NCBI RefSeq assembly: GCF_024223415.1
Contig: NZ_CP100500.1
Reading direction: 5' to 3' (one strand)
DNA length: 64,000 nucleotides
DNA from: Escherichia coli
GTDB lineage: Bacteria; Pseudomonadota; Gammaproteobacteria; Enterobacterales; Enterobacteriaceae
Shown here: piece by piece, positions 27,789-62,747 of the stretch
Position numbering within the stretch: the first letter of the stretch is position 1
Layout of the letters: every line of letters begins with the position of its first letter
The notes under the pieces: generated by a model
The model's input: the letters and a program-made list of their open reading frames with translations, nothing else
What the model was told of the DNA's origin: nothing
The model's database searches: none
Translations under genes and position numbers: made by a program

Positions 27789-28534
27789 AACTGATAAAAA
27801 AACCCCTCTGAAAATTCTGTCAGAGGGGGGCAAGGATCTATATTTATTATGCAGTAATGCTTTCACTCCGGTAATTAATTTCCGTGATTAACTGCTTTCG
27901 ATCAATAAAGGAATTGCAAAAAGGTGATCTTGTTCACGACATCGTGGATGATAATATGCCTGATGTCTGAATCCGGAAACAGTGATCTGGCGGGTTTCAT
28001 GTGAAGTTGACGGATAAAAAAATCCGCACGACCAGACAGACGTGCGGTTTACGAAATTCGTAACAAGAGGCTTTTCTACGGATCACGTGGTGCGTGCCAC
28101 GTGAAATTTTTGTAGCGCAAAATGTGTAATGTGTAAATACAAGGAAGGAAAAAGTTAAATCGGTGGAAGTCCATGCCTGCCACATGTATGTCTGCATTCC
28201 TCGTTTTGAACAGAATTCTCACCAGACATCGTGAATTTCTCATTCAATCATCAGAGATATTAACCAGGATTTTTATTGTTTTGTGATATCAGCAGTGCAG
28301 GTATACAGACATTAAAGTAATCAGGTTTATTATAACCACCTTTACAAAGTTGTATGTGTTTATAATTTAAGGATTTTAATCCCAGTCGTTTTCTGCTGCT
28401 TAAATTGAGGGCGCATATTATACACAATAATATTCCTGGCATTATTAAATTAATAAAAGAGGATTCTTATCACTGTATTTTTGCTCCGCACTACCGTTCT
28501 GGCTGGTGAAGTAATAATACAGGAGAATAACAGA

Positions 28535-29644
28535 ATGCTTAAAAGACGTGATGCTTTTTTAAAGAAAAGCGCGCTGGCAGTGAGTGTGGCCCTGCTGCTC
28601 TCATCTCAGGCTTCGGCTCATAAAACAATTACTGATTCAACGGCGGGTATTATCTGGATTGATGGTGGCGGTCAGTCACTTGAAAAAGTAGCTGTGATTG
28701 ACCGTCAACTAAATGATACAGGATATAATTTTGCCGTAGGTAGTGGTGCAGCAATTCTGGATGCGGATAAATCCATGGCAACAGGAAATAATACAGCTGT
28801 TTTTAATGCAGACAACAGTGTCGCTCTGGGGTATGGCTCTCAGGTGAATGGAGAAAGCAATGTACTTTCTGTAGGGGCCGGTCCTTCAGGATATGGATTT
28901 TCAGTTGATGGTGCACCGGAAACCCGCCGGATTATAAATGTTTCAGATGGTGTTAAGGATAGTGATGCGGCCACAAAAGGACAGATGGACAACGCCATTG
29001 CAGATGCTGTACGGGAGTCGGGGGATGCCCTGCGCGGTGAGATAGGAGCTGTCTACCGTGATGCTGTTGCTGATGCTAAGAGTCGAGTGGAATCGGCAGA
29101 AAACAGACTTAACGGTAATATTACAGCTGCCAGGGCTTCTGCGCAGGAATACACGGATGCGGTGAAGTCGGATGTTCTGGACGAGACGCGTACATATACA
29201 GACAGCAGTGTGCGTACTGTCCGTAACGAGGTGAAAAGCCAGGCAGAACATCTCAGCGATGTGCTTGTGAAGAACAGGGCGCAGACGGATGCAGCAATAG
29301 CCTCAAATACAGCAGCGATAAGGAATAACAGTCATCGTCTGGATTTGACGGAAGCCTGGCAGAAGATGGCGACAGAGAGAATGAATAATATGCAGGAGCA
29401 GATTAAAGAGAACCGGAAGGAGTTAAGGGAGAGTGCAGCCCAGAGCGCGGCACTGGCCGGTCTTTTCCAGCCATACAGTGTTGGAAAATTTAACGCGACA
29501 GCAGCCGTTGGTGGTTACCGTGATGAGCAGGCCATTGCGGTGGGCGTGGGCTACCGTTTCACAGAGAATGTGGCAGGAAAAGTTGCAGTTGCTGCAGGTG
29601 GGTCATCCGCATCGTGGAATGCTGGTGTGAATTTTGAGTTCTGA
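28535..29644 (+). CDS. Trimeric autotransporter adhesin, YadA-like (Eib-family-like)
   Basis: Signal peptide, head/neck motifs (INVSDGVKDSDAATKGQMDNAIAD), coiled-coil stalk and C-terminal anchor ending AGVNFEF; SD AGGAGA. Confidence 0.8.
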   Translation: MLKRRDAFLKKSALAVSVALLLSSQASAHKTITDSTAGIIWIDGGGQSLEKVAVIDRQLNDTGYNFAVGSGAAILDADKSMATGNNTAVFNADNSVALGYGSQVNGESNVLSVGAGPSGYGFSVDGAPETRRIINVSDGVKDSDAATKGQMDNAIADAVRESGDALRGEIGAVYRDAVADAKSRVESAENRLNGNITAARASAQEYTDAVKSDVLDETRTYTDSSVRTVRNEVKSQAEHLSDVLVKNRAQTDAAIASNTAAIRNNSHRLDLTEAWQKMATERMNNMQEQIKENRKELRESAAQSAALAGLFQPYSVGKFNATAAVGGYRDEQAIAVGVGYRFTENVAGKVAVAAGGSSASWNAGVNFEF

Positions 29645-29704
29645 CAGGTCAGGATTTAGATATCTGTCCCGGGGGAGTCCCCCGGGATATAATGAGGTAC
29701 AGAG

Positions 29705-30160
29705 ATGCTGGATATAATCCTGGCGACGAGAGATATTTATTTTGAAAAAGCCCTGCGAGAGATATTTGGAACCGTAAGCAGTCGAATCAGATATATAGAA
29801 GATGCCATATCAGACAGAAGAAGGGTGCAGTCAGGCAGGTCATTCAGATATTATTTTGTATTCTGTGATGATGAGTATACAGATATTGTTCGTATTCTTT
29901 TTACCGGAGAGGCCTGCTGTATTCTGAATAAGTCGATGCTGAATCTGAGAGCGGCCGGAGGTGTGTTGACGCTGGAAGAGCGCAGAGCGGTACTGAACCG
30001 GTATTACAGAGGTTTAAGTATTGCGGAGATTACAGAAGAGACGGGGCAGAATGACAAGACGGTATACGGTCATCTTCGTCGTGCACTGCAGCGGTCTGGA
30101 TTCCGGAAGGGGCGTTTTATAAAGGGGAGAGAAGCTGCGGGGGATTCAGGTGTTGAATAA
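29705..30160 (+). CDS. Putative transcriptional regulator with sigma-70 region-4/LuxR-type HTH
   Basis: C-terminal LTLEERRAVLNRYYRGLSIAEITEETGQNDKTVYGHLRRALQR; preceded by palindrome cccgggggagtcccccggg. Confidence 0.6.
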   Translation: MLDIILATRDIYFEKALREIFGTVSSRIRYIEDAISDRRRVQSGRSFRYYFVFCDDEYTDIVRILFTGEACCILNKSMLNLRAAGGVLTLEERRAVLNRYYRGLSIAEITEETGQNDKTVYGHLRRALQRSGFRKGRFIKGREAAGDSGVE

Positions 30161-30543
30161 TGTATCTTATATTGTGATATCGGTGCTGCTGCTGTTATTT
30201 TTTGTTGTATTTGTGACGAATGGTTAAGAATAAAACATGAGCTGGTGATTATCAGGACAGGTTGCTTGTATATGAAGATAACAAAGGCGGCATTTATTTT
30301 TGCGCTGTCAGTGTGGAGTGTTGCTGTGATATGTCTTTTATTATTTGTACTGGTTGTTCTGGGATAGCTATAGTGGAATTATTATTTTTTTAAGACTATG
30401 GTTTATATTTTTATTCGGCAATATTTCTGTAAACAATTAAATATCAGAAAGGCGTGTTGTATGCGTGAACACGCCTGAGTATGTATACAGAGATTGTTAA
30501 TTTGGAGAGAATAATTACAGTTGTTATTTATTTGACGTCCTGA

Positions 30544-30792
30544 TTAGTGAAAAAACCAGTCATCAGCAGTTTCCCAGACTTCCTGCAGCGTTTCCTGTAT
30601 GAACTTCTGAGCGTTTTCTTTATCTACGGCTCTTAAAATGGTCAGTCCGTCATTACTGGCGGATTTTACTATAACCTCCACATCGTCATATCGTTTTCTG
30701 ATACGGCGAGACATTTCCTGTTGTAGAGCAGGTACAGAGCCTTTTGGCATTTTGCTGAATTTTTCTTTAGCGATACAGATCTCAACACGCAT
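30544..30792 (-). CDS. DinI-like protein
   Basis: 82 aa [16 protein letters not shown]...[14 protein letters not shown] resembles DinI; SD GGAGGG. Confidence 0.85.
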
Positions 30793-31005
30793 AACCCCCT
30801 CCTGTAACTGTAGTTATGTACAGGTGTTATTTTTAGCTGTGTGGATAACCAGTGTCAATTGGTAATATTGCCTATGGGGCATGTATGGGACACTTTTTAT
30901 CGGCGAAATCCGTCGAAGTTCGTCGACATCGAAAACGAATCATCTGTCCAACCCTTGAAAAATGGCGCTCCTGGACGATCTTCGTCGATTTTTAAAAATG
31001 TTGCG

Positions 31006-31074
31006 TCACGCGCGTAACGTGACAGGATTAATATCACAAAGCAACGCCACTTCACCAATTGTGTAAAGCGCCAT
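31006..31074 (-). pseudogene. mlrA: mlrA (yehV) 5' fragment, truncated after codon 23 by prophage insertion
   Basis: Minus-strand ATG at 31074 encodes MALYTIGEVALLCDINPVTLRA then a stop; this matches the MerR-type MlrA N-terminus as recalled, and the sequence to the left is phage. Confidence 0.7.
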
Positions 31075-31295
31075 CGTCTCACCCTTGCTCGCGAGGTCCC
31101 GGTTTAACTTTAGACGCAGTTTTGCGAACCAGGTAGTTTTGCCCGTTTTTTGTGCATCTATAGGGTGATTTTATTTTTGCCAGGCGATTTTGAGTGATCG
31201 TACTCACGAATTCTCATTTTTCTGCAAGAGTTCAAAGAAAGTTAAACGCAGGCAATGTATGTTACGCGTTTTAAAGGGAAGTGTGGTTTGCGGGT

Positions 31296-32981
31296 ATGTA
31301 CGATTTTAATCTGGTGTTGCTGCTGCTTCAGCAGATGTGCGTTTTTTTAGTCATTGCATGGTTAATGAGTAAAACGCCATTATTCATACCGTTAATGCAG
31401 GTCACGGTTCGTCTGCCGCATAAATTTCTCTGCTACATCGTCTTTTCCATCTTCTGCATCATGGGCACCTGGTTTGGGTTGCACATTGACGATTCTATTG
31501 CCAATACCCGTGCGATAGGCGCGGTAATGGGCGGCTTACTCGGCGGTCCGGTCGTCGGTGGGCTGGTTGGGCTGACCGGCGGCTTACATCGATATTCGAT
31601 GGGGGGCATGACCGCGTTAAGTTGCATGATCTCGACCATCGTTGAAGGATTACTCGGTGGCCTGGTACACAGCATCCTGATCCGCCGCGGGCGCACTGAT
31701 AAAGTCTTTAACCCCATTACCGCCGGTGCCGTCACGTTCGTCGCTGAAATGGTGCAAATGCTGATCATCCTTGCGATCGCCCGACCTTATGAAGATGCGG
31801 TGCGTCTGGTGAGTAATATTGCTGCGCCAATGATGGTCACCAATACCGTCGGCGCGGCGCTGTTTATGCGTATATTGCTCGATAAACGCGCGATGTTTGA
31901 AAAATACACTTCGGCTTTTTCTGCCACTGCGCTGAAAGTGGCAGCCTCGACGGAAGGCATTTTGCGCCAGGGGTTTAACGAAGTGAACAGCATGAAAGTG
32001 GCTCAGGTGCTGTATCAGGAACTGGATATTGGTGCAGTCGCGATTACCGATCGAGAGAAATTGCTGGCCTTTACCGGAATTGGTGACGACCACCATTTAC
32101 CCGGCAAACCGATTTCTTCAACTTATACTTTAAAAGCGATTGAAACCGGTGAAGTGGTCTACGCTGATGGCAACGAAGTACCTTACCGTTGCTCTTTGCA
32201 TCCGCAATGCAAACTGGGGTCGACGCTGGTAATTCCGTTGCGTGGTGAAAATCAGCGGGTGATGGGCACCATCAAATTGTATGAAGCCAAAAACCGTTTA
32301 TTCAGTTCAATCAACCGCACGTTGGGTGAGGGGATTGCGCAATTGCTTTCGGCGCAGATCCTTGCCGGGCAATATGAGCGGCAAAAAGCGATGCTCACCC
32401 AGTCAGAGATCAAACTGCTTCACGCCCAGGTGAATCCCCATTTTTTGTTTAATGCGCTTAACACCATTAAAGCGGTGATCCGCCGCGACAGCGAACAGGC
32501 CAGCCAGCTGGTGCAGTATCTTTCCACTTTTTTCCGCAAAAACTTAAAGCGGCCTTCGGAGTTTGTTACTCTCGCCGACGAAATTGAACATGTGAATGCT
32601 TATCTGCAAATTGAAAAGGCGCGCTTCCAGTCGCGGTTGCAGGTCAACATTGCTATTCCGCAAGAATTATCCCAGCAGCAATTGCCCGCGTTTACCCTGC
32701 AACCGATAGTGGAAAACGCCATTAAACATGGGACATCACAACTGCTGGATACAGGGCGAGTGGCAATCAGCGCCCGACGTGAGGGGCAACATTTGATGCT
32801 GGAGATCGAAGACAATGCCGGTTTGTATCAACCGGTAACCAATGCCAGTGGGCTGGGGATGAATCTGGTGGATAAGCGTTTACGTGAACGGTTTGGCGAT
32901 GACTATGGAATAAGCGTCGCCTGTGAGCCTGATAGTTACACCCGAATAACGTTACGACTACCATGGAGGGACGAGGCATGA
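31296..32981 (+). CDS. btsS: Sensor histidine kinase BtsS (YehU), LytS family
   Basis: 561 aa; 5TM-LytS, GAF and HisKA_3/HATPase domains; followed by a LytTR regulator. Confidence 0.95.
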
Positions 32982-41344: not shown

Positions 41345-41650
41345 ATATTCATCCCTGAAATGTATTAATGAAATAAACGATATTTTACGCGCAATAAATG
41401 TTTGGCGCATTAGTTGTTTGAGCGAAAAATATCTGGAAAGCAGATCACAGTAAATAAAAAAACCTGCTGGTGAGGCAGGTTCTTTTATTTACTATTTTCA
41501 GGCCTAACACCACAGCCTGTGCAACATCGTGTTCCAACGAACGAATTATAACCACGGCTGGACCCCGTTGCAATTAAGATAATGAGATTTATAATCCAGG
41601 CCATTGGGACGTTGCGCCGGATCGGACCAATTTGAATTATTTAGAGTATA

Positions 41651-57524: not shown

Positions 57525-58559
57525 ATGGAAATTCGCATAATGCTATTTATATTAATGATGATGGTTATGCCTGTGAGCTATGCGGCATGTTATAGTGAGT
57601 TATCTGTTCAGCACAATTTGGTTGTTCAGGGGGATTTTGCACTTACTCAAACACAAATGGCGACATATGAGCATAATTTTAATGATTCGTCATGCGTGAG
57701 TACAAATACTATCACCCCTATGAGCCCGTCGGATATTATTGTTGGACTTTATAACGATACCATTAAATTAAATTTACATTTTGAATGGACCAATAAAAAC
57801 AACATCACGTTGTCAAATAATCAGACCAGTTTCACCAGTGGTTATTCAGTTACGGTGACACCTGCGGCCAGTAATGCAAAAGTGAATGTTTCTGCGGGGG
57901 GCGGCGGTTCAGTGATGATTAATGGTGTTGCGACATTATCCAGTGCTTCATCATCGACACGCGGGAGTGCCGCAGTACAATTTCTACTGTGTTTATTAGG
58001 TGGCAAGTCATGGGATGCATGTGTAAATAGCTACAGAAATGCATTGGCACAAAATGCAGGTGTCTATTCCTTTAATCTGACATTGTCATACAACCCGATA
58101 ACCACAACCTGCAAACCGGACGATTTATTAATTACTTTAGACAGTATTCCCGTTTCACAATTACCAGCCACAGGTAACAAAGCAACAATAAATAGTAAAA
58201 AAGAGGATATTATTCTGCGTTGTAAAAATTTATTAGGTCAACAAAATCAAACATCACGGAAAATGCAGGTGTATTTATCAAGTTCTGACTTGTTAACCAA
58301 CAGCAACACAATACTGAAAGGTGCGGAAGATAATGGCGTAGGATTTATTCTTGAAAGTAATGGTTCGCCAGTCACACTTTTAAATATCACTAACAGCAGT
58401 AAAGGATACACAAATTTAAAAGAAATTGCGGCAAAGTCAAAACTTACAGATACAACGGTTTCAATTCCGATAACAGCCAGTTACTACGTCTACGATACAA
58501 ATAAAATTAAATCTGGCGCACTGGAGGCAACCGCATTAATCAACGTGAAATACGACTAA
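57525..58559 (+). CDS. yehA: Fimbrial adhesin-like protein YehA
   Basis: 344 aa; last gene of the chaperone-usher operon. Confidence 0.85.
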   Translation: MEIRIMLFILMMMVMPVSYAACYSELSVQHNLVVQGDFALTQTQMATYEHNFNDSSCVSTNTITPMSPSDIIVGLYNDTIKLNLHFEWTNKNNITLSNNQTSFTSGYSVTVTPAASNAKVNVSAGGGGSVMINGVATLSSASSSTRGSAAVQFLLCLLGGKSWDACVNSYRNALAQNAGVYSFNLTLSYNPITTTCKPDDLLITLDSIPVSQLPATGNKATINSKKEDIILRCKNLLGQQNQTSRKMQVYLSSSDLLTNSNTILKGAEDNGVGFILESNGSPVTLLNITNSSKGYTNLKEIAAKSKLTDTTVSIPITASYYVYDTNKIKSGALEATALINVKYD

Positions 58560-58640
58560 TAACAAGCAAGACGAGCAAGTGGCTAATAATAAAAAATAAC
58601 AAGGTGTCTGCATTTCCCCCTCATGATGAGGGGGCTTTTT

Positions 58641-61969: not shown

Positions 61970-62747
61970 TCTGGGCCGTGTATATCATACGCTGCCAATG
62001 GCAGCTAAAAAAATGGGATGTACTGTAGAGGATATTCTACATTTTGGTGCAACTAACCGACTTGAAATATGTGCGTATATTGATGATATTGAACAGAGAA
62101 AAGATTATTGCACTTTTAATGTGTTTTTTGATAATGAAGATAGCGAGAATAGTTTTTCTAAAACTATAAATAAATATAATTCCATATTTACTGACATGTA
62201 TGAAATATCATTGTTTAATTATAATGATGAGTTTTGTGTTGATGATGAGCGTATGGTTATTGAAGGTTTGTATGCTAATCATATGAAAGGCTTTTTTGCA
62301 ATACCATCTGAATTTCTTGTCGAAGTTGAATTGTCAAGTGCCTGTGAAATCATAAATCTATCGCCTCGTTATTTATATACACCGAAAGGTTATGGTGATT
62401 ATATTCGGTTGGATAGTATAGAAGGTCTTTCTATTCCAGAAAACAGGCTCGTGATATTCGATAGTGAGATATCGGGTTTTAATTATCAAAAGAAACCTAA
62501 ATATGCCGGAGGTGAAAGAGAATCACCTAAAACCAGAGCTAAAAAAGCCGAGATAATACCTGCTCTCATAAAACTGATCCCTGAGATGCAAGATGTGGAT
62601 TTGGAGGATACACCCGTATCCAAAATTGCAGAAATGATAGAGGTTATTGCTGCACAAAGAGGGGTTGAGTTACCTAGCACTCACAGGCAGACATGGCAGA
62701 AATATTTAGGGCGTGATGCTGGTGACGTTCCAAAACGTCAAAAGTGA
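61962..62747 (+). CDS. Hypothetical protein, low GC, start overlaps the integrase stop
   Basis: 261-aa ORF overlapping the int stop (ATGAATAA); AT-rich codon usage; no family recognised. Confidence 0.6.
   Translation: MNNLGRVYHTLPMAAKKMGCTVEDILHFGATNRLEICAYIDDIEQRKDYCTFNVFFDNEDSENSFSKTINKYNSIFTDMYEISLFNYNDEFCVDDERMVIEGLYANHMKGFFAIPSEFLVEVELSSACEIINLSPRYLYTPKGYGDYIRLDSIEGLSIPENRLVIFDSEISGFNYQKKPKYAGGERESPKTRAKKAEIIPALIKLIPEMQDVDLEDTPVSKIAEMIEVIAAQRGVELPSTHRQTWQKYLGRDAGDVPKRQK

Follow-up and report, generated by a model that had tools for sequence, protein, structure and literature searches.

The stretch of DNA analysed here (the window) comprises 64,000 nt of Escherichia coli contig NZ_CP100500.1 (assembly GCF_024223415.1), read on one strand. 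It contains a lambdoid prophage, which is inserted in mlrA beside btsS and whose junction with the chromosome lies at ~31007. At the right end of this prophage, 3' of the tail-fibre genes, an ORF at 28481–29644 encodes a YadA-like trimeric-autotransporter adhesin. Its gene is followed by a GC-rich perfect palindrome and, on the same strand, by an orphan gene for a 151-aa protein with a helix-turn-helix (HTH) domain (29705–30160, WP_000884153.1 family). Two short ORFs come next, termed ORF1 (30150–30227) and ORF2 (30272–30367), which encode strongly hydrophobic peptides of 25 and 31 aa, respectively. The RefSeq/PGAP annotation never lists either of them, whereas automatic gene callers predict ORF2 as a 31-aa gene on more than 200 public contigs. 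An AT-rich spacer of 164 bp (30380–30543) then leads to a convergent gene for a DinI-like protein of 82 aa (30544–30792, minus strand).

The ORFs close a mobile adhesin cassette

We compared the locus with public genomes. Of 5426 complete E. coli genomes, 183 (~3%) contain a match to the stretch 29650–30560, always in the chromosome. Carriers of the cassette include the strains APEC IMT5155, BEN2908 and Ch1. In 161 of these genomes the match ends at ~30379, and in the remaining 22 it continues through the spacer and the present dinI allele. The right edge can be placed at 30368–30379, where the homology shared between prophages and islands ends ~12 nt past the ORF2 stop (query position 240), and this boundary is the same in two unrelated contexts. 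The left boundary is equally sharp: at ~29232, within the adhesin gene, the mean pairwise identity among 22 loci rises from ~0.8 to at least 0.99, and this level is sustained up to the ORF2 stop. The block of 1.15 kb thus delimited is ~99.5% identical as a whole, with all copies being at least 97.5% identical, and among the 40 records listed the best copy fell short of full cassette coverage in only one. Copies reside in two kinds of setting. In lambdoid prophages, such as that of the window, the block occupies the right end, and in islands flanked by integrase genes and IS elements it adjoins IS256-type elements, YaiO or MliC. One copy assigned to 'Salmonella' (P0005, locus L032) shares the island haplotype and does not widen the divergence. 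Hence, ORF1 and ORF2 form the 3' end of a near-invariant mobile cassette, which consists of the C-terminal part of the adhesin gene, the HTH gene and both ORFs and which is transferred as a single unit between the ends of lambdoid prophages and islands flanked by IS elements.

The cassette resembles the morons of phages, a term for genes such as lom and bor of phage lambda, which lambdoid prophages have acquired independently as cassettes at their ends. Like these, it is found in a lambdoid prophage, with the tail-fibre genes on one side and attR on the other; its mosaic boundaries are sharp, and copies exist outside prophages, too. However, the term fits the cassette and not the two small ORFs as such, and no dedicated terminator was found at the 3' end of the cassette.

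The portion of the adhesin gene that belongs to the conserved block (29232–29644) encodes the membrane anchor (Pfam YadA_anchor, E = 2.3e-16). The passenger domain is hypervariable, and the products range from 362 to 548 aa. The adhesin may correspond to Eib; among solved structures, a sequence search matched the membrane anchor of YadA and, weakly, a single chimeric construct that contains a putative adhesin/invasin, and none of the chains is named Eib. Past the adhesin stop and ahead of the HTH gene, the palindrome TCCCGGGGGA-G-TCCCCCGGGA (29667–29687) represents an inverted repeat with 100% complementarity and is directly followed by TATAAT. One run of G residues in this element counts five in the window and six in each of the 26 other copies examined.

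The HTH protein resembles region 4 of sigma-70 factors (Pfam Sigma70_r4_2, E = 2.2e-7, residues 87–130), although its scores against sigma families (19–21 bits) lie far under the respective cut-offs of 43–222 bits. In addition, it weakly matches phrog_6585, a profile of 156 positions, which is close to its own length. To find out if related proteins end in a membrane anchor or are followed by small ORFs, we looked for distant homologues. No relatives below ~88–94% identity were detected among 5.8e9 proteins in a word-indexed search or among 1.84e9 representatives searched with HMMER, which yielded only fragments of at least 88% identity and HTH-only matches near E = 1e-4. Likewise, tblastn against 50,697 phage records as well as blastn against phages and against plasmids returned nothing, and an AlphaFold model of the HTH protein computed without an alignment was unusable (pLDDT 37).

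On the other side of the ORFs, the DinI-like protein is readily recognized (Pfam DinI, E = 2.4e-19), and its gene has a strong Shine-Dalgarno (SD) sequence (−11.9 kcal/mol). A LexA-box core of the form CTGT-N8-ACAG is present upstream at 30808–30823 and is one of just two such matches in the window; the dinI-like gene is therefore probably under LexA control. The spacer between this gene and the cassette is specific to the present prophage lineage. Only 22 genomes have it, along with this dinI allele, and other dinI alleles match from the dinI stop onward only. Within the spacer, the original prediction had noted a stable hairpin at 30449–30476. Such a structure, GGCGTGTT(9-nt loop)AACACGCC, does exist at 30450–30476 with a stem of 8–9 bp and a folding energy of −14.3 kcal/mol, but it stands out only to a moderate degree (z = −1.7; equally good folds arise in 12 of 200 shuffled sequences) and lies outside the block that bears the ORFs. 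Read on the minus strand, the hairpin is located 68 nt past the dinI stop and continues into the U-tract UUUCUGAUAUUU, as expected for an intrinsic terminator, whereas the plus strand continues with UGAGUAUGUAUAC, which lacks a U-tract. Our terminator scan had missed this element owing to its loop of more than 8 nt. As the U-tract is found on the minus strand only, the hairpin most likely serves as intrinsic terminator of the dinI-like gene. Neither the hairpin nor this gene is part of the ORF unit. The proximity of the ORFs to a DinI-like gene, which had also been pointed out, is true for the window but incidental, since 161 of the 183 ORF-bearing genomes lack this dinI and hairpin neighbourhood. 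That is, the ORFs adjoin dinI by an accident of this one lineage of prophages.

Two hydrophobic frames behind the HTH gene

The frame of ORF1 opens at GTG 30150 or TTG 30153 and, from the former, encodes the 25-aa peptide MLNNVSYIVISVLLLLFFVVFVTNG (GRAVY 1.96), in which ~5 residues precede a single hydrophobic segment of 18 residues. Its start overlaps the stop codon of the HTH gene (TAA, 30158–30160) by 11 nt, as would be expected if the two cistrons were translationally coupled. A GGGGG motif at 30139–30143, 6 nt 5' of GTG 30150, may provide the SD sequence. It is invariant in all aligned copies, and its predicted duplex with the anti-SD sequence (−8.6 kcal/mol) ranks in the top 1.2% of the 6045 ATG, GTG and TTG codons in the window. 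ORF1 had originally been described as a 17-aa ORF starting at a GTG further downstream. This shorter version exists, albeit one base from the coordinates given at the time (30174–30227 instead of 30175–30228), and its GTG shows no SD pairing (+0.4 to +0.9 kcal/mol). A competing start, the TAATG at 30160, would yield only the pentapeptide MYLIL.

For ORF2, the ATG at 30272 and the end of the stop codon at 30367 agree exactly with the earlier description. The 31-aa product MKITKAAFIFALSVWSVAVICLLLFVLVVLG (GRAVY 2.26) comprises a basic N-terminus (MKITK) and a hydrophobic segment of 26 residues. Its SD sequence is mediocre (−4.6 to −5.6 kcal/mol at a spacing of at least 10 nt, top 12%). Thus, the former assessment of both SD sequences as weak is fair for ORF2 but wrong for ORF1. 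ORF2 shares the frame of the HTH gene, from which it is separated by TAA 30158–30160 as the sole intervening stop. The hydrophobic signal, which is reflected by T at the second codon position, first follows the frame of ORF1 itself, where the HTH frame reads as the Cys-rich stretch CILYCDIGAAAVIFCCIC, and then switches to the frame of ORF2. Each of the two ORFs has a start and a stop, no more than 50 codons and one predicted helix of 18–26 residues, as is typical for genes of small membrane proteins.

Virtually every copy of the cassette has both frames intact. Among 27 copies compared, ORF1 has no variable site, and a 3-nt deletion in a CTG repeat was seen in two genomes. ORF2 has one common variable site (V28I) and four rare variants in protein databases (A6V, F9L, I20M and L30M); all five changes are nonsynonymous and all keep the residue hydrophobic. 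Across the same 27 copies, 5 sites vary in the 219 nt past the HTH stop as compared to 6 in the 456-nt HTH gene. In addition, two natural disruptions were found, one by an IS3 element within ORF2 in strain SFE8 and one by a rearrangement within ORF1 (locus L007). Loss of the frames in related prophages had been named as an outcome that would speak against the peptides. The frames are kept everywhere, but this observation carries no weight because identity is at least 97.5% in all copies and distant homologues are lacking. An analysis of the dN/dS type was abandoned for the paucity of variable sites (~6 in the HTH gene, one common site in ORF2 and none in ORF1).

Homology searches with the ORF1 and ORF2 peptides gave self-matches only and none outside the cassette, and the profiles of Pfam, NCBIfam, PHROG and PADLOC returned no relevant match. 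None of the papers in the library searched mentions the peptides or WP_000884153, and those on Eib and other YadA-like adhesins are silent on ORFs downstream.

Possible small membrane peptides or a relic

How can these two frames be explained? The reading we favour, to which we assign a probability of roughly 45%, is that ORF1 and ORF2 are co-transcribed and encode small, unannotated membrane peptides, each predicted to span the membrane once. The stretch between the HTH gene and ORF2 contains no site on the plus strand that conforms to promoter or terminator consensus sequences, which suggests that the ORFs share an mRNA with the HTH gene and perhaps also with the adhesin gene. Translation of ORF1 would be coupled to that of the HTH gene, as its GTG overlaps the HTH stop and lies 6 nt past the strong GGGGG motif. 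ORF2, in turn, may initiate independently and less efficiently at its own ATG, which has a mediocre SD sequence in an A/U-rich leader. Each peptide would form a single helix in the inner membrane, and the MKITK start of ORF2 predicts a cytoplasmic N-terminus. The original prediction had likened the arrangement to small-membrane-protein loci, and this part of it is compatible with all findings, namely a clean transmembrane stretch in each ORF, hydrophobicity beyond chance (see below), a strong putative ribosome binding site for ORF1 and retention in essentially all copies.

The main rival holds that the ORFs are untranslated or at least functionless. According to this scenario, the T-rich 220 bp behind the HTH gene are the decaying remnant of a membrane-protein coding sequence from the donor of the cassette, which hitch-hikes in a young, near-clonal block and whose frames are still open as there was too little time for stops to arise. 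We regard this as less likely than the favoured reading, though as the strongest of the alternatives. The cassette is indeed very young or has been homogenized, so that intact frames cost nothing. Moreover, the exclusively nonsynonymous variants of ORF2, the number of variable sites past the HTH stop relative to the HTH gene, the tolerated disruptions by IS element and rearrangement, the weak SD sequence of ORF2 and the absence of both ORFs from the PGAP annotation are all in line with a relic. However, decay leaves unexplained why an SD sequence of the top 1.2% precedes a well-spaced start that overlaps the upstream stop, why each ORF forms a complete unit of start, transmembrane segment and stop, and why in both contexts the cassette has its edge shortly behind the ORF2 stop. 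Also, no parent gene was found in the homology searches with the peptides.

Alternatively, the hydrophobic ORFs could have arisen by pure chance from a T-rich, A-poor intergenic stretch, in which stops are rare and codons with T at the second position dominate. The region 30161–30379 has 40.6% T and 36.5% G+C, and longish open stretches are present in all three forward frames. As such a composition favours both open frames and hydrophobic codons, the possibility was tested directly using 5000 shuffles of 30161–30379 that preserve dinucleotide composition. An ORF resembling ORF2 (ATG start, at least 31 aa, GRAVY of at least 2.26) appeared in 0.06% of the shuffles (p ~6e-4). One ORF of at least 25 aa with the hydrophobicity of ORF1 was obtained in 1.8%, and two or more in only 0.02% (p 2e-4). 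In the six frames of the whole window, a GRAVY of at least 1.9 is reached by just 4 of 711 ORFs of 20–60 aa, two of which are ORF1 and ORF2, leaving 2 such cases among the other 709. Therefore, the region carries a genuine signal of transmembrane-segment coding, present or past, and we consider an origin by chance very improbable.

Marginally less credible still is the idea that ORF2 is the C-terminal membrane anchor of the HTH regulator, a tethered protein of 220 aa being made now or once. Such a protein could be produced by readthrough of TAA 30158–30160, by frameshifting at the tracts of five G and six T residues (G5 and T6), or from an ancestral uninterrupted gene. A single TAA separates the two frames, 68 codons are open past it (p ~0.005), and the basic stretch RKGRFIKGR lies ahead of the hydrophobic part. 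Moreover, NCBI lists 'fused' proteins of 220 and 225 aa (P0002, i.e. MDC9149451.1, and P0019, respectively), which join the HTH domain to both helices. However, P0002 requires G5 to become G4 and T6 to become T7, and its source assembly (GCA_028598215.1, locus L006), when compared with a near-identical complete genome, shows 5 separate homopolymer indel events within 6.66 kb. The assembly behind P0019 (L029) differs from locus L013 by 139 gapped columns over ~2.8 kb, many of them single-base homopolymer gaps, and its adhesin gene is shattered. P0010 and P0047 represent similar artefacts. We rejected all four as evidence for an ancestral or phase-variable anchored regulator, because the assemblies from which they derive carry homopolymer errors. 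By contrast, T6 is found in 183 of 183 complete genomes and T7 in none, and G5 and the TAA are present in essentially all of them; 20 loci retrieved via the exact 31-aa peptide have T6, G5 and the TAA as well. Slippery heptamers for −1 frameshifting follow the pattern X XXY YYZ, and T6, which is preceded by A, would make a poor one. Furthermore, the HTH domain is located at the C-terminal end of the protein, as in ordinary proteins of the sigma-region-4/LuxR type, and the weakly matching profile phrog_6585 is close in length to the 151-aa protein. Finally, since the hydrophobic signal switches from the frame of ORF1 to that of ORF2, deriving both from one ancestral gene would call for two frameshifts, and a pair of independent small ORFs is the more parsimonious assumption.

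The least probable explanation is a type I toxin-antitoxin system, to which the locus had originally been compared and in which one of the peptides would depolarize the membrane under the control of an antisense RNA, possibly in connection with the SOS-regulated dinI. As in Hok, Ldr, Ibs, TisB, ShoB, DinQ or ZorO, the ORFs encode short hydrophobic peptides (a single transmembrane segment, <60 aa) on horizontally acquired DNA, here with an SOS-type gene adjoining; the convergent dinI transcript might read antisense into ORF2 should the hairpin leak, and one weak promoter-like site faces the minus strand at 30276–30248 (9 of 12 matches). The search for an antisense sRNA that had been proposed as a check came out negative, however, as promoter-like sites do not exceed chance (2 found, 3.5 expected), 29700–30440 contains no terminator on the minus strand, and the antisense strand is less structured than its shuffles (z = +1.05). 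The sense strand at 30125–30400 is unremarkable, too (z = −0.53), and provides no structured leader. Rfam gave no match at E ≤ 5 at the ORFs, while the same scan found OrzO-P, a genuine type I antitoxin RNA, at 41456–41531 in the window, 11 kb away. Taking Rfam (gathering and E-value thresholds), folding of both strands and a repeat search together, nothing in favour of an RNA-based explanation emerged. No toxin family of Pfam, NCBIfam, PHROGs, PADLOC or Rfam is matched, the ORFs appear as distal cistrons of an operon without a promoter of their own, and dinI adjoins them in just 22 of 183 genomes. We therefore dismiss the toxin reading as highly improbable.

Relation to known membrane peptides and regulators

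If the favoured reading of two translated membrane peptides is correct, ORF1 and ORF2 would have counterparts among the operon-encoded small inner-membrane peptides, such as MgtR (30 aa, encoded by the distal cistron of mgtCBR), KdpF (29 aa), PmrR, AcrZ and CydX. Like these, they are short (25–31 aa), comprise hardly more than one predicted transmembrane helix, form extra cistrons of an operon and are routinely missed by annotation pipelines. By analogy, they would probably act through binding of a larger membrane or regulatory partner. They differ from the peptides of the MgtR/KdpF type in having no sequence similarity to them (Pfam, NCBIfam, PHROG) and in being confined to a mobile cassette that is present in ~3% of E. 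coli genomes.

Which partner could this be? One may speculate, on the model of MgtR, KdpF and AcrZ, that the peptides modulate the regulator or the adhesin of the cassette at the membrane. More specifically, ORF1 and/or ORF2 might provide membrane partners for the orphan HTH regulator, so that a minimal pair of regulator and peptide would travel with the gene of a YadA-like adhesin. We consider this version improbable at present. The arrangement is reminiscent of ECF sigma factors and their membrane-bound anti-sigma factors, inasmuch as a gene for a region-4-like protein directly precedes an ORF with a transmembrane segment to which it may be translationally coupled. However, the HTH protein matches region 4 only, while such pairs are recognized by regions 2 and 4 of the sigma factor, and ORF1 has no anti-sigma domain since only ~5 residues precede its transmembrane segment. 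Were the partner reading nevertheless true, the pair could tune expression or biogenesis of the adhesin to the state of the envelope, e.g. through tethering or sequestration of the regulator, and it would represent a new, lineage-restricted family of regulatory membrane peptides that has no homologues among ~6 billion proteins.

Taken together, our analysis corrects the picture of this locus with respect to the start of ORF1, the unit to which the ORFs belong, the ownership of the hairpin, the dismissed toxin-antitoxin reading and the database 'fusions', which are homopolymer artefacts of assembly. If real, the peptides would be new, homologue-less examples of a well-known kind, that is membrane peptides encoded by small ORFs. 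Their translation would add two more under-annotated small membrane proteins, in this case tied to a mobile adhesin cassette. Carriers of this cassette include many avian-pathogenic E. coli and some Shiga-toxin producers. The peptides, if translated, could offer a handle on the regulation of the adhesin.

Prophage setting and the convergent dinI-like gene

The prophage is inserted in mlrA, with a junction at approximately 31007. From this position onward the sequence is core chromosome, comprising the 5' part of mlrA together with btsS, and it was found in 5425 of 5426 genomes; the corresponding segments lie at 31006-31074 (minus strand) and 31281-32981 (plus strand). At 1777-2006, three clustered tRNA genes are present on the plus strand, as is typical for the late region in lambdoid prophages. 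The dinI-like gene (30544-30792, minus strand), which converges on the cassette, is preceded by a promoter-like site on the same strand (TTGACA-18-AAAAAT, 30858-30829). A LexA-box core (CTGT-N8-ACAG, 30808-30823) is located between this site and the start of the gene, an arrangement that suggests SOS control of the prophage dinI-like gene.

The HTH protein and the small hydrophobic ORFs

Two very large protein searches returned no homologue of the 151-aa HTH protein (gene at 29705-30160) beyond the cassette, which makes it an orphan. The sole match of note was a weak one of its N-terminal part to phrog_6585 (E = 3e-4), and an alignment-free AlphaFold prediction, at pLDDT 37, was uninformative. 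The 220-aa and 225-aa proteins listed publicly as 'sigma factor-like' (e.g. MDC9149451.1) are artefacts of long-read assemblies, in which homopolymer errors have fused three reading frames; their source assemblies are GCA_028598215.1 and GCA_019430965.1 (cassette-carrying loci L006 and L029).

The end of the HTH gene forms a TAATG stop/start overlap, which opens a pentapeptide mini-ORF, MYLIL, at 30160-30177 (plus strand). The mini-ORF would compete with ORF1 (30150-30227, 25 aa) for re-initiating ribosomes. Besides ORF1 and ORF2 (30272-30367, 31 aa), only two small ORFs in the window reach a GRAVY of at least 1.9, namely MKYHCLIIMMSFVLMMSVWLLKVCMLII (28 aa, 62200-62286, plus strand) and MLFFIISHLLVLLVISRISR (20 aa, 58540-58602, minus strand). 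At 41456-41531 on the minus strand, Rfam identifies OrzO-P (99.9 bits, E = 2e-15), which serves as antisense antitoxin RNA in the type I system ZorO-OrzO; no ZorO-like ORF of at least 25 aa was found within the adjoining 500 bp.

A mosaic boundary within the adhesin gene

Between the adhesin stop codon and the HTH gene, a perfect 10+10 GC-rich palindrome (29667-29687) adjoins a TATAAT motif; possible roles include those of operator, attenuator or processing site. Its left arm carries G5 in the window as compared to G6 in all 26 other copies examined. Immediately 5' of the adhesin gene, gene callers repeatedly predict a small ORF, which encodes 34 aa in the window (28405-28509, plus strand) and 49 aa in many contigs, the latter version beginning MYFNDFLVIAFLLLKLRAHIIHNN (positions 531-680 of L009, a public-database contig carrying the cassette).

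The YadA-like adhesin gene itself (28481-29644) contains a sharp mosaic boundary at approximately 29232. Its passenger domain is hypervariable among loci, with product lengths ranging from 362 to 548 aa, whereas the final ~410 bp of the gene and the sequence through to 30379 are ~99.5% identical between loci. This pattern suggests that adhesin heads are swapped onto a constant 3' block by cassette-style recombination.
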